A stretch of 26,916 bases of DNA from Thermodesulfobacteriota bacterium (GTDB taxonomy: Bacteria > Desulfobacterota_D > UBA1144), in assembly GCA_029246845.1 (NCBI GenBank), contig JAQWMJ010000049.1:1-26916 (forward strand), in the 5' to 3' direction. Below are positions 6,819 through 25,837 of the stretch, one piece after another. The notes beneath the pieces are model-generated. The model made no database searches and was not told where the DNA came from. It saw only the letters and a list, made by a program, of their open reading frames with translations. Numbering within the stretch: the first letter of the stretch is position 1; the number at the start of each line of letters is the position of its first letter. Position numbers and translations under genes: made by a program.

Positions 6819-7313
6819 ATGAGATTTTTTGTTACAAAAGACCTAAATAAAAATAGCGCCTTGAAGCTAATAATCTTCTTTTCCTTAATTTTCTTTATTG
6901 GGCTGATAGTTACAAATTTTTTATTTATGTATAAGATTGGCTTTACACCATCTTCGGTGACTAATTATTACTTGGGAAACCCAGAGATATTTAGACAACC
7001 TAAGAGTTATGGCTCACTTGTTGAAGAGACACATTTTCACCTATTTGCAATGGGAATTATCTTAATGACGCTTAATCATTTAATGCTTTTTAGTAAGCTT
7101 AAGGATAGTTATAAAATTTGGATAATAGTAATATCCTTTACATCTTGCTTGCTAGATATAGGATCAAGCTGGCTCGTTAGATATGTTTCCAGCAGCTTTT
7201 CAATAGTTAAGGTGTCATCAATGATTGTTGAGCAAGTATTCTTACTATTGTTAATCATTATAATTACCAAATCCATATTTACAAAAGAAAATAATGAGGT
7301 CATATACAAATGA
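6819..7313 (+). CDS. Hypothetical inner-membrane protein, about 4 TM, with H-x-H...H motif
   Basis: Four hydrophobic segments; EETHFHLFAMG..LNHL. Confidence 0.7.
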   Translation: MRFFVTKDLNKNSALKLIIFFSLIFFIGLIVTNFLFMYKIGFTPSSVTNYYLGNPEIFRQPKSYGSLVEETHFHLFAMGIILMTLNHLMLFSKLKDSYKIWIIVISFTSCLLDIGSSWLVRYVSSSFSIVKVSSMIVEQVFLLLLIIIITKSIFTKENNEVIYK

Positions 7314-17362: not shown

Positions 17363-18253
17363 ATGATTAAATTTGAACAACCTATGTTTAGACCACCGAG
17401 TGAAGCCAATAGCTTGCTAATTCAAGCTACTATTGGCTGCTCGCATAATTCATGTACATATTGTGCTATGTATAGAGAGTCAAATCAGAAGTTTAGAATG
17501 AGATCTGAAAAAGAGATTTTCCAAATCATTAATGAAAATTCAAGCCCAACATATAAAAAGGCTTTTATAGCTGACGGGAACGCTTTAGTTTTGCCAACAA
17601 AGTTGTTACTTAAGACTATTAAAAGAATTTATGAGAATAATAAAAATATTAAACAGATATCTATATATGGAAATGTTGGTGACATTCTTAGGAAAAAGCC
17701 TGAGGATCTAAAAGAATTAGCTGCTGCAGGACTAGACATGGTTTATATAGGATTTGAAAGTGGAGACGATGTTACTCTTAAGAGAATTAAGAAAGGTGCT
17801 AATAAGATAAAAACAATTGATGCCATGAGAAAGCTTAAAGATGCAGGCATTAAGGTCTCAGGTATGGTCTTGTTAGGAGTTGGCGGTAAAGAAAGAAGCT
17901 TTGTTCATGCCTATGAAACTGCAGATATGCTATCAAAAGGAGATCCTGATTATGTTGGATTGCTCTCTCTTCAAGTAAGACCTGGAGCCCCTATATACAA
18001 GTCCTGGGAGAGTGGAGACTTTGAACTCCCTGATAAATTTCAAATATTAAAAGAGTTGGAAATAATTGCGGAAAACACTGTTCTTACAAATGGACATTTT
18101 TTTTCAAATCACATTTCTAATTATCTTCCAATAAAAGCAATCTATCCTAGGGATAAAGAAAAAACTGTTAAGAAGATCAAGGGAATTATATCTAAGAAGT
18201 CAGAGAAAGATTTAAGGTCCGAATATTATAGAGATGTGGTAAATCAATATTAA
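17363..18253 (+). CDS. Radical SAM protein, function unknown
   Basis: RPPSEA.SLLIQATIGCSHNSCTYCAMY (CxxxCxxC), FIADGNAL, GFESG, SNHISNY. Confidence 0.92.
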   Translation: MIKFEQPMFRPPSEANSLLIQATIGCSHNSCTYCAMYRESNQKFRMRSEKEIFQIINENSSPTYKKAFIADGNALVLPTKLLLKTIKRIYENNKNIKQISIYGNVGDILRKKPEDLKELAAAGLDMVYIGFESGDDVTLKRIKKGANKIKTIDAMRKLKDAGIKVSGMVLLGVGGKERSFVHAYETADMLSKGDPDYVGLLSLQVRPGAPIYKSWESGDFELPDKFQILKELEIIAENTVLTNGHFFSNHISNYLPIKAIYPRDKEKTVKKIKGIISKKSEKDLRSEYYRDVVNQY

Positions 18254-18266
18254 GGGGAATTAAATA

Positions 18267-19193
18267 ATGAAAATAGGAATAACAACGCCAATAAGAGGAT
18301 GTAGCGTTAAAGATTTAAGACAGTTAGCTAAGACAGCTGAGTCTGCAGGTTTTTATGGAATTTTTTCACCTGAAGTTCCGATTTACAGTGCAATTGGAAA
18401 TGCTCAGGTAATGGCTGAAGCTACTAAATCAATAAAAATAGGTACATGGGTTACTAATATATACATGAGAGAGCCTATAATGTGTGCCTCTGAAGCGATG
18501 ACTGTTCAAGAAATTTCGGAAGGTAGAATGATTTTAGGATTAGGTAATTCTCATAAGCCAGTTAATGATGTGTTTGATATAGATATGGGTGATCAGTATG
18601 AGTCTATGAAGCAGTATGTAATAAAGATTAAGTCTTATGCTGATGGTAGCTCTGATCATTACGAGAAAATACCAATCAAAAGAGATCTCCCAGTCTTTGA
18701 TATTCATATAACAGGTTTAACAAAAAGAACAGCAGCACTGGCAGGAGAACTTGCTGATGGCATAATGCCTTATTTAGCAAATTTAGACCATCTAAAAACT
18801 CTTTATTCTTCAGCAAAATCAAAAGCAGGGGATAAGAAATTTGAATTTACCTCTGGAATGCCGGTTTTCTTATCTGATGATGTAGACCAAGCTGTTGCAG
18901 CTGCAAGAATTGGGGTAGGGAGACAGGCCCTAAGACCATCTTATAAAAGAGTGCTAACTAACAGTGGTTTTGGAGATATTATTAAAAAGCTTGAGTCTGG
19001 TATCTCACCTGAAGAAGCAATCTCAGACAAACTGTTGAACGAGCTATGTCTTTTTGGTAAAACCTCGAACTGCAGGAAACAGCTCGAAGCACAATTCGAC
19101 AATGGCTCGACTATGCCAATATTGACCCCATTTCCAGTAGGAAATCAGTCCCCATTGCAAATGATGGATGAATTAATTAAATTATTAGATTAA
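18267..19193 (+). CDS. Luciferase-like (LLM class) flavin/F420-dependent oxidoreductase, copy 1
   Basis: AESAGF, IKIGTWVTNIY.R.P, GRMILGLG.SH, LAGELADG. Confidence 0.88.
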   Translation: MKIGITTPIRGCSVKDLRQLAKTAESAGFYGIFSPEVPIYSAIGNAQVMAEATKSIKIGTWVTNIYMREPIMCASEAMTVQEISEGRMILGLGNSHKPVNDVFDIDMGDQYESMKQYVIKIKSYADGSSDHYEKIPIKRDLPVFDIHITGLTKRTAALAGELADGIMPYLANLDHLKTLYSSAKSKAGDKKFEFTSGMPVFLSDDVDQAVAAARIGVGRQALRPSYKRVLTNSGFGDIIKKLESGISPEEAISDKLLNELCLFGKTSNCRKQLEAQFDNGSTMPILTPFPVGNQSPLQMMDELIKLLD

Positions 19194-19229
19194 AATTAGA
19201 ATCTAGGGAATTAAAAGGAGAATATTAAA

Positions 19230-20159
19230 ATGAAAGTATCAGTAACAACACCAGTCTGGGGATGTTCGGTTGAAAATCTCATTGGAATTGCAAAGTTAGC
19301 AGAGGACTCACCAGTAGAAGCACTTCTTTCACCGGAAGTTCCGCCTTATAGTGCCTTGGCAAATGCGCAGATATTCGCTGAATACACTAAAGAAACTAAA
19401 GTTGGAACCTGGATTTCTAATATATATTTAAGGCACCCTGTTATGTGCGCCGCAGAAGCTATGACTATCCAAGAGCTAACTGGCGGTAGATTATTGCTTG
19501 GTTTAGGTGTTTCACACAAACCTGTAAATTCTAGATTGGGAATTGAAATGGGAGACCCTATAGAGTCAATGAGAGATTATGTTAACTCAGTTAGGTCTTA
19601 TCTAGACGGTTCTTCTGATCAGATTAGCCTGAAAAGAAAAATAGCACCAGTGCCAATTTATATAGCTGGATTAACAGAAAAGACAGCAGAGTTGGCTGGA
19701 GAAATAGCTGATGGTCTTATGCCCTACTTGGCGAGCGCTGACCATTTAAAAAAAATGAGAAGTTGCGTAGATAAAGGAAGGTCCTCTGGAGATTTAGATT
19801 CAGATTTTACCATGACTACTGGACTACCATCCTTTATATCTGATGATTTAGATTTAGCAGTTGAAAGTGCGATTAAAGGTTTGTCGGGATATGCTAGATT
19901 ACCTTTTTACCAAAGAGTTCTTAAATTAAGCGGGTACGAGGACATAGTTAAGTCTATAGAAGATGGAATGAATCCAGCCGAGGCCTTAACGCCAGAACTT
20001 GTTAGCGACCTTGCATTGGTAGGCCCAATTGGTAAATGTAAGGAAACATTAGCTAAGTTTGCTGAGGCGGGAGCCGATATGCCGATAATAACTCCTAATC
20101 CAGTTGGAAAACAAAGCCCATTAGAGGTAATGGAAAAAATTATAGAAGTAATTGAGTAA
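19230..20159 (+). CDS. Luciferase-like (LLM class) flavin/F420-dependent oxidoreductase, copy 2
   Basis: Colinear paralog of the upstream gene; GGRLLLGLGVSH, PIYIAG, LAGEIADG; AAGGAG RBS. Confidence 0.9.
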   Translation: MKVSVTTPVWGCSVENLIGIAKLAEDSPVEALLSPEVPPYSALANAQIFAEYTKETKVGTWISNIYLRHPVMCAAEAMTIQELTGGRLLLGLGVSHKPVNSRLGIEMGDPIESMRDYVNSVRSYLDGSSDQISLKRKIAPVPIYIAGLTEKTAELAGEIADGLMPYLASADHLKKMRSCVDKGRSSGDLDSDFTMTTGLPSFISDDLDLAVESAIKGLSGYARLPFYQRVLKLSGYEDIVKSIEDGMNPAEALTPELVSDLALVGPIGKCKETLAKFAEAGADMPIITPNPVGKQSPLEVMEKIIEVIE

Positions 20160-20221
20160 GTTTAAAAATAGAACTAATAGACACTAAATTTTTTATAATT
20201 AGATGTTATCCTTAGACACTT

Positions 20222-20653
20222 ATGGCTGAATATACAACTTTAACGAAAAAAATTGAGTTTTCTTCTTCCCATCGATATTGGAGGAAGGAGTGGACTGAGT
20301 CAAAAAATTTAGAGGTTTTTGGAAAGTGTACTAGCAAGTATGGACACGGTCACAATTATGTACTTGAGACTACCGTAGAAGGTCCAGTAGATTCTGATAC
20401 AGGAATGATTATTAATATTTATAGACTCAAACCTATTTTAAAAGATACATTGAAAGAATTTGATCATAAGTTTTTAAATGAAGATACTGACTTTTTTGAC
20501 GATCAAATTCCTACAACTGAAAACTTTGCTAAGGTTTTATATGAATGCATTGCTGAAAAACTTTCTAAAGAAGAATGTAAATTACAAAAAGTAAGATTAT
20601 ATGAAACTAAAGATTTGTTTGTGGATTATTGGAAGGAAGAGAATGTTGAATAA
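20222..20653 (+). CDS. 6-pyruvoyl-tetrahydropterin synthase/QueD family, copy 1
   Basis: FSSSHR, FGKCTSKYGHGHNY, TGMII, DHKFLN, PTTEN, LYET. Confidence 0.9.
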   Translation: MAEYTTLTKKIEFSSSHRYWRKEWTESKNLEVFGKCTSKYGHGHNYVLETTVEGPVDSDTGMIINIYRLKPILKDTLKEFDHKFLNEDTDFFDDQIPTTENFAKVLYECIAEKLSKEECKLQKVRLYETKDLFVDYWKEENVE

Positions 20654-21062
20654 TTGCACTTTAACAAAGATATATTCATTTAGTGCTGCTCATAGGCTAC
20701 ATAATGATAAGTTCACAGAGAAAGAAAATAAAGAAATATTCGGAAAGTGTAATAATCCTAACGGACATGGGCACGATTATTCTTTAGAGCTCACATTGAG
20801 CGGTGAAGTTGACGAATTAACGGGAATGATAATTGATATTGTAAAATTAGACGAGATTGTTGGCGAAGTCATAGAAGAACTTGATCACAAAAGGTTGGAT
20901 ATTGAAATAGAATACTTTACTAGCATCAGGGCCTCTGGTGAAAATATTGCTAAATATTTGTGGGATAAAATTGTTGTATTAATTCCAAGACCAGCGTATC
21001 TATACCATGTAAGACTCTGGGAAACATCAGAGAATTTTTTTGATTACAAGGATGTGTCATGA
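20643..21062 (+). CDS. 6-pyruvoyl-tetrahydropterin synthase/QueD family, copy 2
   Basis: ATG 20643 after purine-rich GGAAGGAAGAGA; FSAAHRL, FGKCNNPNGHGHDY, LDHK, SGENIA, LWET. Confidence 0.9.
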   Translation: MLNNCTLTKIYSFSAAHRLHNDKFTEKENKEIFGKCNNPNGHGHDYSLELTLSGEVDELTGMIIDIVKLDEIVGEVIEELDHKRLDIEIEYFTSIRASGENIAKYLWDKIVVLIPRPAYLYHVRLWETSENFFDYKDVS

Positions 21063-21913
21063 AGAAAAATGTATTTTTAACATGGGAAGATATTTTTTCA
21101 AGAATAGAATATATCAAGAAGAAATATAAGATTGATAAAAAAACTAAGATATATGGTGTACCAAAGAATGGAATGATATTGGCTGGATTTTTTAATGCTG
21201 TTAATGTCCCAGCTCCTGGAGACGCTGATTTTATTTTAGATGACATAATTGATTCAGGAACAACAAAGAAAAAATTCAAGAAGTTATTTCCAAAGAAGAA
21301 ATTTATTACGCTTTTTGAAAAAGATGCAAAAGTTGATTGGGTTAACTTTCCATTTGAAAAACAAATTGACGAAGATCAGAATGATACCGTGGTAAGACTT
21401 CTTCAAATAATTGGCGAAGACCCTAGAAGAGAAGGATTACTCGATACACCTAGAAGATATTTGAGTGCTTTTCATGAATTTTTAAACCCACCAACTTTTA
21501 ATATGACCACATTTGATGCTGAAAAAACTGATGAAATGATTGTTCAGTTAGATATACCTTTTTATTCTTTCTGTGAGCACCACTTGCTACCCTTCTTTGG
21601 CAAGGGGTATATCGCATACATACCCGATAAAAAGATTGTTGGGCTAAGTAAATTAGCACGAACATTAGAAACCTTTTCTAGAAGACTTCAAAATCAGGAA
21701 AGAATTACAAACCAGGTAGCTGACTACCTTCAGGAGAATTTGGAAGCTAAAGGTGTAGCAGTAGTTTTAAAAGCAAGACATCTATGTATGGAAATGAGGG
21801 GTGTTAAAACCTCAGATGCAAATACTATTACAAGCAAACTCTTGGGCTATTTTAGAACAGATGAGAGAACTAGAGCAGAATTTTTAAACCTTATAGGTAA
21901 CCACCGGAACTAA
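21059..21913 (+). CDS. folE: GTP cyclohydrolase I with N-terminal phosphoribosyltransferase-like domain
   Basis: C-terminal GEDPRREGLLDTP.R, CEHHLLPF, GLSKLAR, QER, HLCMEMRG; first ~100 aa carry ILDDIIDSGTT. Confidence 0.93.
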   Translation: MKKNVFLTWEDIFSRIEYIKKKYKIDKKTKIYGVPKNGMILAGFFNAVNVPAPGDADFILDDIIDSGTTKKKFKKLFPKKKFITLFEKDAKVDWVNFPFEKQIDEDQNDTVVRLLQIIGEDPRREGLLDTPRRYLSAFHEFLNPPTFNMTTFDAEKTDEMIVQLDIPFYSFCEHHLLPFFGKGYIAYIPDKKIVGLSKLARTLETFSRRLQNQERITNQVADYLQENLEAKGVAVVLKARHLCMEMRGVKTSDANTITSKLLGYFRTDERTRAEFLNLIGNHRN

Positions 21914-21915
21914 TT

Positions 21916-22620
21916 ATGAAGAAGAAAGTTGCAGTAATTAGTGGTGGAACGAGTGGAATAGGAAAAAGAATGGTTTCAATGTTCTTAAAGAGTGGCGTAA
22001 AGGTAGTAACTTTTTCAAGAAAGAAATCGAATATTAATAAATTAAAAAGAGAATTAATAGAGTTTAAACAAGATCTGATTTGTTATCAGGGCGATGTAAG
22101 CTCTATCGAGGATATCAACAAGATATCTGGAAGTATTAAGAAGCAATTCAAAAGTGTTAATTATTTGATAAATAACTCAGGGACAAATGTATTGAACCCT
22201 ATCGGTAAAATAAAAATTAAAGATTGGCAAAGGATTATAGATGTTAATCTCACTGGAGTTTTTTATTTAACGCAAAGTCTTCTACCTTTATTAAAAAAGA
22301 AATCAGTAGTACTAAATATGGGTTCTCTAGCATCTAGAAGTGGTTTTCCTAATTGGTCCGCTTATTGTGCTTCTAAGTTTGGGCTAAAGGGTTTTACAGA
22401 AGCCCTAAGAGAAGAGGTGCGAACTAGACAAGTTAGAGTTGTCCACGCTGAAATAGGCGCTACTGATACTGGTATTTGGGATAATCTTGAAGGTACGTGG
22501 GACAGAGGTAGTATGATGAACGATTTTGAGGTTGCCCATATATTATTTGATTCTATAACTAAAGTTAAATCAGTTAATGTAGATGAAATATTTCTTATGC
22601 CACCCAATGGTGTACTTTAA
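21916..22620 (+). CDS. Classical SDR oxidoreductase, candidate sepiapterin reductase
   Basis: SGGTSGIG, INNSG, Ser + YCASK; basic SRK residues suggest NADP(H); specific function inferred from context only. Confidence 0.85.
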   Translation: MKKKVAVISGGTSGIGKRMVSMFLKSGVKVVTFSRKKSNINKLKRELIEFKQDLICYQGDVSSIEDINKISGSIKKQFKSVNYLINNSGTNVLNPIGKIKIKDWQRIIDVNLTGVFYLTQSLLPLLKKKSVVLNMGSLASRSGFPNWSAYCASKFGLKGFTEALREEVRTRQVRVVHAEIGATDTGIWDNLEGTWDRGSMMNDFEVAHILFDSITKVKSVNVDEIFLMPPNGVL

Positions 22621-22634
22621 TTTCAGGTATCCTA

Positions 22635-23705
22635 ATGGAAATGAATCAGCAAACAGATAAACTCGATAATGAATTATTAAACTTATTGCAGTCTGAATTC
22701 CCTGTATCTGAATCTCCTTTTCTAGAATTAGGTGTAAGATTATCTATTTCAGAGTCTGAGGTCATTGAGAGAATTAATAAACTTAAAGAAATTAATTATA
22801 TCAGACAGATTAGTGCAATTTTTGATACTAGAAGTATGAAATACAAGTCAACATTAGTGGCAATGTCATATGAAGATTCTAATGTTGATGGTGCGGCAGA
22901 AATAATTAATCAACATCCTGGTGTTACGCATAATTATAAAAGAAACCATTTTTATAATTTATGGTTTACCCTTGCAGTTCCACCCGATAGTAAGATTGGA
23001 CTTGAGGCTACGGTTGATATACTTAGCAGGTTATCAAATGCAAAATCAACAAGAATATTACCAACTTTAAAATTGTTCAAGATTGGAGTTAAACTAGATA
23101 TGACAGGCAAGGATTCTCTTGCATCTACAGACGAAAAATTTTATGGAGAGGAGAATATCTCAAAGGATTATGATTTAACGGCTGATGATGTAAAAATTAT
23201 AAAAGAGGTTCAAGAAGATTTCCCACTAATACCAAATCCATATTCATATTTAGCGGAAAGAGCTGGAGTTAAAACTCAAGATCTCTTAGATTGTCTTGAT
23301 AATTTGAACAAGCATGGCGTAATGAGGCGTGTAGCAGCAATCCTTCATCACAGAAAGGCTGGTTTTAAAGCCAATGCAATGGGAGTATGGAAGGTACCCA
23401 TAGATAAAATAGAAGAGATTGCCCCTGTAATGTCGAGTTTAAAGTCAGTAAGCCATTGCTATAGACGACCAACTTATCCTGATTGGCCATATTCTTTATT
23501 TACAATGATACATGGTAAGACAGCTAAGGACTGTGAGTCTATTATTAAATCTTTATCTGACATGTCAGGCATTAAGGAATATGATTCGCTTTACAGTTCT
23601 AAAGAGTATAAAAAAACTAGGTTGAAATATTTCTCAACTGAACAAGATGTATGGGAAGATATTCATATTAAGGAAGTAGACGATGTTATCAGTTCTAACA
23701 ATTAA
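22635..23705 (+). CDS. ahbAB: Siroheme decarboxylase, fused AhbA-AhbB (NirDL-like, two Lrp/AsnC-like repeats)
   Basis: LQ.EFP..P, PGVTHNYKR..YNLWFT; second repeat ANAMGVW, VSHCYRRPTYPDWPY.LFTMIHG, LYS.KEYKK. Confidence 0.88.
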   Translation: MEMNQQTDKLDNELLNLLQSEFPVSESPFLELGVRLSISESEVIERINKLKEINYIRQISAIFDTRSMKYKSTLVAMSYEDSNVDGAAEIINQHPGVTHNYKRNHFYNLWFTLAVPPDSKIGLEATVDILSRLSNAKSTRILPTLKLFKIGVKLDMTGKDSLASTDEKFYGEENISKDYDLTADDVKIIKEVQEDFPLIPNPYSYLAERAGVKTQDLLDCLDNLNKHGVMRRVAAILHHRKAGFKANAMGVWKVPIDKIEEIAPVMSSLKSVSHCYRRPTYPDWPYSLFTMIHGKTAKDCESIIKSLSDMSGIKEYDSLYSSKEYKKTRLKYFSTEQDVWEDIHIKEVDDVISSNN

Positions 23706-24978
23706 TCATAACAATTCAGATATATCATTTTTAGAAAGTTTTACTTTCAATAAAGACTCACTTCCTAATGCTCTTAGTCAATTAAAATCTATAAATGGAA
23801 TAGATGAGTGTTTTATACTGTCTACCTGTAATAGGGTTGAGATATACGTTTCAAGTAAAATTAAAAATATAGACTCACAAATAATACAGTTTATTTCGAA
23901 TTTCCATAAGGTTCCAATCTCTAAGAAGGCTCCTACAACTTATCAGTTTATGCATGGAAAAGATGCTGCTTATCATTTAATTAAGGTTGCTTCAGGGTCT
24001 GATTCAATGTTGCTTGGAGAGCCACAAATAATTAATCAAATTAGAGAGGGATATAAAATCGCAAGTTCTGTGCAAGCAATAGGAAAGTCATTACATAAGC
24101 TTATTCAAGTATCACTTTTTGCTGCCAAGAAAGTTAGGTCTGAAACATCTTTAGGGAGTAGAGTCGATTCTATAGGATCACTAGTCTCAAAACTAAGTAA
24201 GAAACTATTTGAAGATTTAAATAAAAGAAGTTTACTGGTAATTGGAACGGGAGAGATAAGTCAGATTCTAATCTCTAATCTTAAGAATGAAGGTGTTTCT
24301 GAAATTTTTATAGCAAGCAGGAATATAAAAAATGCTATAACTTTTGCTGATAAAAATAACTGTAAACCAATACCAATAGAAGAGGTTAAGGACTACCTTG
24401 CCACTACAGATATTATTTTCTCTTCAACTGGCTCAACTGACTTTATTATTAAAAAAGATGATATTCAGATAGTTCAAGAAGATAGAAAAGATTCCATTAT
24501 GTTTTTTGTTGATATTGCAGTTCCAAGAGATATGGACCCAAGGATAGGAGATATAGACTCGTGTTATCTCTATAATTTAGACGACTTAAAAGCAATAATA
24601 GATAACGATCATTCTGAGAATAATAAGAATTTAGAAGAAGCTTCGGTAATAATTCAAAACTCATTAGATACTTATGTTCATTGGGAGAATTCAGATAATG
24701 TTAAGGATATTATAACAAGAATGAGAAGGGCCGTGGAAGATATAGTAGAAAAAGAAGTTAAGAGTACTTCCTTTGATACTATGGATAAGGCTTTAATTGC
24801 TAAAAGAATTAGCAACAAGATTCTACATATGCCAACTCAAAATATAAAAGATGAGGCAAGTTTAGAGAATAGCTTGTATCTGTCAGTTCTTTCCGAGATT
24901 TTCGACTTAGATAAAGATGTAAGTGAGTCAAATATTTATAAAATAGAAAATGAAAAAACTTTTAACAATAGGAACTAG
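23683..24978 (+). CDS. hemA: Glutamyl-tRNA reductase
   Basis: LSTCNRVEIY, DSMLLGEPQI, IGTGE, DIAVPRD, LYNLDDL. Confidence 0.96.
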   Translation: MLSVLTINHNNSDISFLESFTFNKDSLPNALSQLKSINGIDECFILSTCNRVEIYVSSKIKNIDSQIIQFISNFHKVPISKKAPTTYQFMHGKDAAYHLIKVASGSDSMLLGEPQIINQIREGYKIASSVQAIGKSLHKLIQVSLFAAKKVRSETSLGSRVDSIGSLVSKLSKKLFEDLNKRSLLVIGTGEISQILISNLKNEGVSEIFIASRNIKNAITFADKNNCKPIPIEEVKDYLATTDIIFSSTGSTDFIIKKDDIQIVQEDRKDSIMFFVDIAVPRDMDPRIGDIDSCYLYNLDDLKAIIDNDHSENNKNLEEASVIIQNSLDTYVHWENSDNVKDIITRMRRAVEDIVEKEVKSTSFDTMDKALIAKRISNKILHMPTQNIKDEASLENSLYLSVLSEIFDLDKDVSESNIYKIENEKTFNNRN

Positions 24979-25837
24979 AGCAAGTAAGTTAGCTTTATGG
25001 CAGGCTAATCATGTAAAAGAATTCCTATTAAAAAATTTTCCCGCTATAGACGTAGAGTTAAGAGAAATAATCACAACTGGTGATGCAAATTCAGAAGATA
25101 CTATCGAATCGTTCGGCGGTAAAAATATTTTTGTTAAAGAAATTGAACAAGCCCTAATATCAAAGGAGATTGATATTGCTGTTCATAGCTATAAAGATTT
25201 ACCTGCTGAGTTACCAGAAGGATTAGAGGTTATATCGACTTCAAATAGAGAAGACCCTAGAGATGTCTTAGTTACTAAATCAAATAAAACGCTTATGGAT
25301 CTAAACGATAATCCTAAGATTGGAACAGGTAGTTCAAGAAGGAGCGAGCAGCTAGCGCATATTAGGAAAGATGTAAATATTATTCCGATTAGAGGTAATG
25401 TTGATACCAGAATTCGTAAAGCTTTGGAAACTGATATTGATGGAGTTGTCCTGGCAAATGCGGGAATTAAAAGACTAGGCTTAAGTAATCATGTATGTGA
25501 ACTATTCGATATCGACGTCATAGTTCCATCCCCTCTCCAGGGCTTTTTAGCTATAGAGGCTCGAGAGGATGCAGATTTAACAAAGTATTTTGAACACTTC
25601 TCCTCTGAAGAAAGTGTTTTGGTATCTAATTATGAAAGACAATTTTTAAAAGATTTAAATCTAGGCTGTCAGTATCCTGCAGGTTTCTGCATGCAAGTCC
25701 ATAATGATAATAAGTTTTCTTTTAATTATTTTTTAAAAGGCTCAAAGAAAGAAGTTAAGAACAAAGAAGTATTTAGTTATTCAGATTTATTGGCTCAGTA
25801 TTCAAAGATGGTGGATACACTCGCTCCAATCATTTGA
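24950..25837 (+). CDS. hemC: Hydroxymethylbilane synthase
   Basis: IGTRASKLALWQA, FVKEIE, AVHSYKDLP, GTGSSRR, IRGNVDTR, LGCQYP. Confidence 0.96.
   Translation: MKKLLTIGTRASKLALWQANHVKEFLLKNFPAIDVELREIITTGDANSEDTIESFGGKNIFVKEIEQALISKEIDIAVHSYKDLPAELPEGLEVISTSNREDPRDVLVTKSNKTLMDLNDNPKIGTGSSRRSEQLAHIRKDVNIIPIRGNVDTRIRKALETDIDGVVLANAGIKRLGLSNHVCELFDIDVIVPSPLQGFLAIEAREDADLTKYFEHFSSEESVLVSNYERQFLKDLNLGCQYPAGFCMQVHNDNKFSFNYFLKGSKKEVKNKEVFSYSDLLAQYSKMVDTLAPII

Follow-up and report, generated by a model that had tools for sequence, protein, structure and literature searches.

The window analysed here, a stretch of 26,916 nucleotides (contig JAQWMJ010000049.1 of assembly GCA_029246845.1) from a Thermodesulfobacteriota bacterium of a marine, Dadabacteria-like family, carries on its forward strand a gene for a protein of 284 amino acids (21059..21913, from the translation of the open reading frame) in which a very small phosphoribosyltransferase (PRT) domain, here called mini-PRT, precedes GTP cyclohydrolase I (FolE). 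The ATG of this gene overlaps the TGA of the preceding PTPS gene (ATGA), and a short-chain dehydrogenase (SDR) gene begins 3 bases past its stop. The mini-PRT domain occupies aa 1-102 (21059..21364), as delimited by a structural model, fold matches and a profile alignment to xanthine-guanine phosphoribosyltransferase (XGPRT). A helix at aa 103-117 (D..VVRLLQ; 21365..21409) corresponds in the model to the first helix of FolE, and the FolE catalytic domain follows at aa 110-279 (21386..21895). This half is recognized without ambiguity, as it matches PF01227 at E 1.5e-64 (217 bits, cut-off 27), and the fusion protein scores 203 bits with TIGR00063, whose cut-off is 181.6. The motifs CEHH (aa 172-175) and QNQER (aa 211-215) and the pair H241/C243, which we take to have their usual catalytic roles, are invariant in 18 relatives, as is R113 of the first FolE helix among relatives. 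A preliminary description of this DNA, made from the sequence alone, had described the FolE as intact and in frame with the N-terminal domain, and so we find it.

The N-terminal ~102 residues are almost certainly a stripped-down type I PRT domain of the XGPRT kind, to judge from profile alignments and the predicted structure. The four motifs on which the preliminary description had relied, LTWEDI (aa 7-12), IYGVPKNG (aa 31-38), FILDDIIDSGTT (aa 58-69) and WVNFPFE (aa 94-100), are all present, in frame with FolE. General models respond to the domain weakly or not at all. PF00156 gave no match in it at E <= 0.1, while a scan of the whole genome recovered four other PRT frames, and PF00156 (26.3 bits) was passed by 3 of the 96 family representatives scanned. 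The NCBIfam XGPRT model NF006613 produced a partial match limited to aa 53-96 (E 4e-6; 26.4 bits against a cut-off of 138). A profile built from 85 aligned family members (A3), on the other hand, matched XGPRT in the PDB at E 3.9e-13. The match has two blocks, in which positions 1-57 of the family correspond to XGPRT 1-58 and positions 62-107 to XGPRT 85-141; the second block has a gap of 11 residues facing those after XGPRT 117. In this alignment the flexible hairpin of XGPRT (~59-84) and 11 residues of its hood have no counterpart in the mini-PRT, which agrees with the earlier impression of a short domain that lacks the flexible loop. In the type I PRTs studied, this loop closes the active site and is important in catalysis.

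Structure prediction, proposed in the preliminary description as a check of its PRT-like assignment, returned a PRT fold. A model of the full-length protein had a pLDDT of 69.5 and, since the fold search with it gave FolE structures only, residues 1-125 were modelled separately. With the A3 alignment as input, the AlphaFold model of this segment reached a pLDDT of 92.8. Its core runs beta-alpha-beta-alpha-beta-alpha-beta-beta and ends in a helix, and helix 37-42 passes through a short segment directly into strand 58-64, with no flexible-loop hairpin between them. The top 28 rows of a structural search with this model were all PRT-fold proteins. The best match was Yersinia XGPRT (6kp5; Z 10.6, 108 aligned residues, root-mean-square deviation (rmsd) 5.7), and Sulfolobus HGXPRT (4z1o) came close (Z 10.0, 113 aligned, rmsd 3.0). 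Other 6-oxopurine PRTs matched at Z 9.5 (5vog, from Neisseria, with bound ppGpp), 9.4 (7kl6, Helicobacter pylori XGHPRT) and 9.3 (1vdm, a purine PRT of Pyrococcus horikoshii), and lower matches included PyrR (1w30, Z 7.8) and PurR (1o57, Z 4.7). Foldseek ranked E. coli XGPRT first (4jls, E 2.4e-5). The nearest clusters of a protein atlas, which we use as a lead only, were small viral proteins labelled 'phosphoribosyl transferase' (score 0.90). XGPRT/Gpt (E. coli 1a95/4jls; Yersinia pestis 5xtk/6kp5) is thus the best match of the mini-PRT both in sequence and in fold, and the two share the order of their elements: an N-terminal strand with Trp, S/P-R-G-G, DD..D(T/S)G.T, F..K and W...PW(D/E). 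XGPRT has 152 residues, whereas the mini-PRT has ~102, without the hairpin and the 11 residues after position 117, and is fused to FolE.

The residues of the ligand site have been retained. The equivalent of the pyrophosphate (PPi) loop, GVPKNG (aa 33-38; 21155..21172), places P35-K36-N37-G38 opposite S36-R37-G38-G39 of XGPRT. The loop for phosphoribosyl pyrophosphate (PRPP), FILDDIIDSGTT (21230..21265), aligns with XGPRT 85-96, so that D61/D62/D65 stand for D88/D89/D92 and S66-T69 for T93-T96. K88 (codon 21320-21322) corresponds to K115, and within WVNFPFE (21338..21358) W94 corresponds to W134 and P98-F99-E100 to P138-W139-D140. The XGPRT residues aligned here are, we assume, those that bind pyrophosphate, ribose-5-phosphate and the purine. 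Counted over 211 near-complete family rows, conservation in the PRPP loop is 0.99 for D61, D62 and G67, 0.96 for D65, 0.91 for S66 and 1.00 for T69; elsewhere in the site it is 0.94 for R/K36, 1.00 for G38, 0.83 for K88, 0.96 for W94, 0.99 for P98 and 0.95 for E100. The PPi loop reads PRGG, the consensus, in 173 of 231 rows, PKGG in 24 and PKNG, the form of the present gene, in 12; FPFE, also found here, is a minority variant (6 of 231 rows) of the family consensus FPWE.

The fusion is a stable feature of the family to which this bacterium belongs. The same mini-PRT~FolE arrangement was found in 16 of the 18 other genomes of the family, as uninterrupted frames of 285-290 codons and with no second FolE found beside it, and contigs from two other marine sequencing runs span positions 20600-22000 unbroken and without indels. 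The preliminary description had considered that the fusion might be missing from reads and relatives; it is present in both. Two genomes of the family, G112 (92% complete) and G103 (90%), gave neither the mini-PRT nor any FolE with the queries used, which may reflect an assembly gap or a real loss. A contig of 600 nt from an RNA library runs across the boundary between the two domains; as DNA carry-over is possible, it shows continuity and only hints at expression. Outside the family, the mini-PRT was found in none of 101 genomes from the phylum's other eight families, which carry an ordinary FolE in open frames of ~184-280 codons. The mini-PRT domain is under purifying selection, with an omega (dN/dS) about twice that of the FolE domain: 0.066 and 0.123 against 0.037 and 0.056 in the 2 of 15 pairs that could be used, the other 13 having been dropped with dS saturated or failed in one or both domains.

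The architecture is common among viruses. Of 1.84 billion representative proteins, 600 matched a domain profile made from 11 related genomes at E <= 1e-3, and 125 did so at E <= 1e-10. Pfam scans of 96 representatives detected PF01227 in 38, 26 of them with a complete FolE domain, and phrog_8995 ('phosphoribosyl transferase') matches 25 of 26 proteins tested, fused as well as stand-alone. In two PRT~FolE proteins, P0125 (582 aa) and P0163 (422 aa), inteins interrupt the FolE domain, and P0125 additionally carries an HNH endonuclease. A pattern scan of IMG/VR yielded relatives in 183 of its first 600 matches, and neighbourhoods were counted at the best 80 loci. All 80 have a fused PRT~FolE, under a ranking that favours fused forms because the query contained the first FolE helix. 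Within 6 kb of these 80 loci lie QueE (75), QueD (71), DpdA (68) and QueC (50), and DpdA is present at 25 of the 25 loci that have at least 5 kb on both sides. These genes were called with locally built hidden Markov models, and samples were confirmed with Pfam (QueC, PTPS, radical SAM) and with PHROGs (phrog_887 for 4 of 4 DpdA; one QueE). PRT~FolE is therefore the usual FolE of phage clusters for 7-deazaguanine DNA modification (queC/D/E plus dpdA). The domain-architecture search suggested in the preliminary description thus reveals a widespread fusion, in viral contigs and in cultured phages alike.

Among cultured phages, tblastn with the N-terminal domain of the window itself found nothing at E <= 0.01, and the phages were reached with two family members, P0064 and P0101, as queries. 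One mini-PRT query matched 39 cultured-phage records, including Pseudomonas (18), Vibrio (7), Flavobacterium (4) and Stenotrophomonas (3) phages, and the fused query was covered to at least 80% in 34 records. The same two-domain architecture is present in Pseudomonas phages PaMx25 and NP1, Vibrio phage VpKK5 and Sphingomonas phage MMDA13. In PaMx25 (Queuovirinae) an open frame of 297 aa (L019 6938-7831) encodes PRGG, DDLIDSG and FPWE followed by FolE, and it lies between queD and a dpdA-type tgt gene. The GenBank record of this phage starts folE at an internal position (7256) and places an out-of-frame 'hypothetical protein' at 6901-7275, so the fusion is unannotated. In phages the fused gene is flanked by queD and dpdA, whereas the present one is chromosomal, beside two PTPS genes and an SDR gene, with no DpdA found. 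Flavobacterium phage immuto_2-6A, in contrast to the present fusion, has two genes: a separate 131-aa 'phosphoribosyl transferase' of the same mini-PRT family directly upstream of a very divergent FolE (end branch 4.27), in a cluster that reads QueD-QueE-PRT-FolE-DpdA-DpdN-QueF.

Separation of the two parts was seen elsewhere too. A second scan, which started from stand-alone proteins, brought in 15 further contigs, 11 with fused and 4 with split genes. In all 4 split loci the PRT gene adjoins FolE, once upstream and three times downstream, and since the order of the genes can be reversed the pairing of PRT and FolE survives rearrangement. The reversed form, in L182 (5304-6390), L183 (2775-3861) and L188 (5304-6399), consists of a FolE of 232 aa and an overlapping mini-PRT of 136-139 aa. 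In stand-alone mini-PRTs, FPWE is followed by a helix that shows D...R..Q, as the first helix of FolE does, and the Arg is nearly invariant in 29 such proteins. Two other apparent joinings are each known from a single cluster representative: P0105 (264 aa) links a mini-PRT to a DpdA/TGT-like piece (phrog_887, E 7e-11), and P0150 (217 aa) links one to a pyrophosphatase (phrog_5658, E 3e-28).

To place the bacterial genes among the viral ones, we built a maximum-likelihood tree of 116 FolE domains, for which the viral rows had been selected by their resemblance to this protein and the cellular FolEs were those of the phylum. The Dadabacteria-like family (11 rows) comes together in one clade (SH-aLRT 100), which falls within a group that also holds 32 viral fused FolEs (SH-aLRT 97); the 29 FolEs of the phylum's remaining families make up a clade of their own (SH-aLRT 99). 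When all 40 bacterial rows, a group named after the tree had been seen, are joined in one clade, the log-likelihood drops by only 10.6 units, and the approximately unbiased test does not reject this tree (p-AU 0.344). As the domain is broad and deep among viral FolEs and confined to one family of the phylum, the simpler story suggested by these data is the capture of a phage gene, with the direction unproven and vertical descent unrejected.

The rest of the genome (1.04 Mb, 32.6% G+C, 91% complete) helps to define what the fused gene could serve. The fused gene itself holds the only FolE match of the genome. QueC, Tgt, FolP and a third PTPS are found elsewhere (contigs C29, C26, C47 and C36), so the fused FolE presumably feeds folate, queuosine and the product of the PTPS-SDR genes. 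FolB was not found in the 91%-complete genome. PTPS-III proteins are known as substitutes for FolB, and one of the PTPS proteins may replace it. Nor was DpdA found in the genome, in which the sole PF01702 match is one frame of 389 codons (449 bits). None of the 19 family genomes reaches the cut-off for HGPRT, and none that for XGPRT; wherever a family genome has the fusion, its strongest XGPRT-like match is the mini-PRT. By sequence, the present genome's four frames with PF00156 (181, 340, 180 and 463 codons) are putative Apt, Prs, PyrE and PurF. Its sole PNP-family gene is a methylthioadenosine (MTA) phosphorylase, and no permease of the xanthine/uracil type was found in the 91%-complete assembly.

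We favour, with a confidence that falls somewhat short of even, the reading that the mini-PRT acts as a guanine-type phosphoribosyltransferase. The domain would bind a 6-oxopurine and PRPP and convert guanine and PRPP into GMP and PPi. TGT-family base exchange frees one guanine for each deazaguanine inserted, and DpdA is described in the phage literature as a base-exchange enzyme that likewise releases guanine. In phages, the guanine expelled from DNA by DpdA would then be removed and recycled, which would pull the exchange forward, take away the competing base and return the purine toward GTP, the substrate of FolE. In the bacterium, the mini-PRT would then be the only 6-oxopurine salvage activity, acting for instance on guanine from Tgt. 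We lean toward catalysis because the ligand-site residues are kept (83-100%) and 6-oxopurine PRTs head the fold matches, because the viral mini-PRT~FolE accompanies the guanine-releasing DpdA (68 of the best 80 loci, and every fully flanked one) and because P0105 joins a mini-PRT to a DpdA/TGT-like piece; for the bacterium, because HGPRT and XGPRT stay below cut-off throughout the family, Tgt and QueC are present and selection is purifying. Several points weigh against catalysis. The flexible loop is missing, and at two positions of the site the Dadabacteria form differs from the consensus of the family, with PKNG in place of PRGG and FPFE in place of FPWE. The constant partner of the mini-PRT, fused or adjacent and on either side, is FolE and not DpdA, a pairing that fits regulation at least as well as salvage. 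GMP is two kinase steps short of GTP, so the fusion does not join consecutive steps. With no DpdA, only an MTA phosphorylase and no permease found, the supply of free guanine in the bacterium may be small, and the domain is kept all the same.

The same observations make it a real possibility, if one that we doubt more than we believe, that the mini-PRT is non-catalytic and serves as a ligand sensor, binding GMP/GDP/GTP, (p)ppGpp, PRPP, guanine or preQ0 and gating the FolE decamer, so that withdrawal of GTP from its pool would keep step with purine supply or with the output of the pathway. Deletion of the flexible hairpin would fit such a role, and the link to FolE is obligate (fusion in 91 of 95 viral loci, adjacent genes in either order in the 4 split ones), down to the immuto PRT directly upstream of FolE and the FolE-like first helix, with its conserved Arg, that stand-alone forms retain. 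The distance of two steps between GMP and GTP speaks for sensing too, as does the purifying selection on the domain where no DpdA is found and little supply of guanine is evident. Regulators and ligand binders are also among the PRT folds matched, namely 5vog with ppGpp (Z 9.5), PyrR (7.8) and PurR (4.7). Yet the near-invariant equivalents of the PPi-loop Arg and of Asp92 exceed what a plain nucleotide pocket needs, although binding of PRPP or ppGpp would use them as well; a complex prediction of aa 1-102 against aa 103-284 scored 0.00, which counts neither for nor against contact between mini-PRT and FolE. That the domain is a new allosteric class, a gutted Gpt that senses purine, PRPP, (p)ppGpp or preQ0 and gates FolE, is possible but rather doubtful. 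Mammalian GTP cyclohydrolase I (GCH1) is regulated by the protein GFRP and by its own N-terminal peptide; these are functional analogies for a sensor only, as added elements that tune FolE, and their fold is unrelated. Loss of the catalytic loop, together with the failure of PF00156 to detect the domain, could further be read as the mark of a structural relic, a scaffold or a solubility or oligomerization module with no ligand-dependent role. We think this very unlikely, given ligand-site residues conserved at 91-100% in 211 diverse rows and an omega of 0.07-0.12, and a mere scaffold would not retain the DD..DSG.T loop.

Of the three functions put forward in the preliminary description, the sensor and the guanine-salvage feed are thus the leading readings here too. 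Very little probability attaches, in our judgement, to the third, a transferase that puts ribose-5-phosphate on preQ0, on 7-carboxy-7-deazaguanine (CDG) or on a pterin, in the manner of ToyH/TubE. Chemically it would be reasonable, since 7-deazaguanines and pterins have the 2-amino-4-oxo edge of guanine, and PF00156 PRTs are signature enzymes of the toyocamycin and tubercidin clusters, whose pathways start with FolE, QueD and QueE, according to a preprint (10.64898/2026.04.15.718813). ToyH and TubE, unlike the mini-PRT, are full-length PF00156 proteins that turn 7-deazapurine bases into nucleosides and are not fused to FolE, and the likeness holds at the level of the superfamily. DpdA, however, uses the free base, so a preQ0 nucleotide would compete with it in clusters where DpdA is constant (25 of the 25 fully flanked loci), and bacterial Tgt likewise requires the free base. 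Some Campylobacter and Cellulophaga phages are described in the literature as lacking an identified DpdA, and such phages contribute none of the 39 cultured-phage records matched by one mini-PRT query.

As to what is on record, no paper in the full-text literature that could be searched links a PRT domain to FolE, although supplements could list longer FolE forms, and this accords with the statement of the preliminary description that no characterized FolE has such a fusion. In the main text of the 2019 paper and the two 2023 papers on phage 7-deazaguanine pathways, the term 'phosphoribosyl' occurs 0 times, and the preprint cited above, in the part available, mentions PF00156 PRTs solely in a tailoring role, in the clusters for toyocamycin and tubercidin. 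The architecture is hence widespread in databases under the name 'GTP cyclohydrolase I' and yet, as far as can be searched, undescribed, and the most informative new fact is its cellular, DpdA-free instance.

FolE is the entry to folate, queuosine and biopterin-type cofactors and to the 7-deazaguanine bases that phages use against restriction. The conserved extra domain of phage FolE, which the main text of these pathway papers does not mention, is thus an unexamined component of a well-studied anti-restriction pathway. Were the mini-PRT a salvage enzyme, it would close a purine cycle and might limit how much of a genome is modified. Were it instead a sensor, this would be the first ligand-controlled FolE of bacteria or phages, a prokaryotic analogue of GFRP control, and ligands would govern pterin and 7-deazaguanine synthesis at its first committed step. 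Because the module is kept in a streamlined, free-living marine lineage in which no DpdA and no canonical Hpt or Gpt was found, its role is not solely in DNA modification; the bacterial case is a natural experiment and offers a non-phage protein for biochemistry.

The neighbourhood of the fused gene is conserved. In all five related loci compared the order is HflX, radical SAM, LLM, LLM, PTPS, PTPS, PRT~FolE, SDR, AhbAB, HemA and HemC, allowing for one locus with a single LLM match and one that ends at the fusion; the SDR gene is present in the 4 of 4 that reach it. The queC/queE/dpdA neighbourhood of the phage type was not seen around the present locus, and QueC and Tgt are on other contigs. 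A prophage origin of the locus was considered and rejected, because the window contains housekeeping genes (SucD, MtnP, IspG, ProS, PyrF, HflX, HemA and HemC) and the operon is syntenic in five of five loci.

Two PTPS/QueD-family genes lie in the same operon on the forward strand, the first at 20222..20653 (PF01242, E 4.5e-34) and the second, directly upstream of the fusion and translationally coupled to it, at 20601..21062 (PF01242, E 1.6e-30). As listed, the two frames overlap by 53 bases (20601-20653), and in the second the Pfam domain is matched only from residue 21 on, so its real start may be further downstream. The SDR gene (21916..22620, forward strand; PF00106, E 6.6e-49) is a candidate pterin reductase, possibly of the sepiapterin type. 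From 17363 to 22620 the window thus holds a radical SAM protein (296 aa), two LLM-class oxidoreductases with matches of the F420/methylene-H4MPT-reductase kind, the two PTPS paralogues, PRT~FolE and the SDR, a string of genes that may make an unusual pterin cofactor. Beyond it, in 22635-25837, a single gene (356 aa) combines matches to the two siroheme decarboxylase subunits, AhbA at 274 bits and AhbB at 243 bits, and HemA and HemC come next, which points to the alternative, siroheme-dependent haem pathway.

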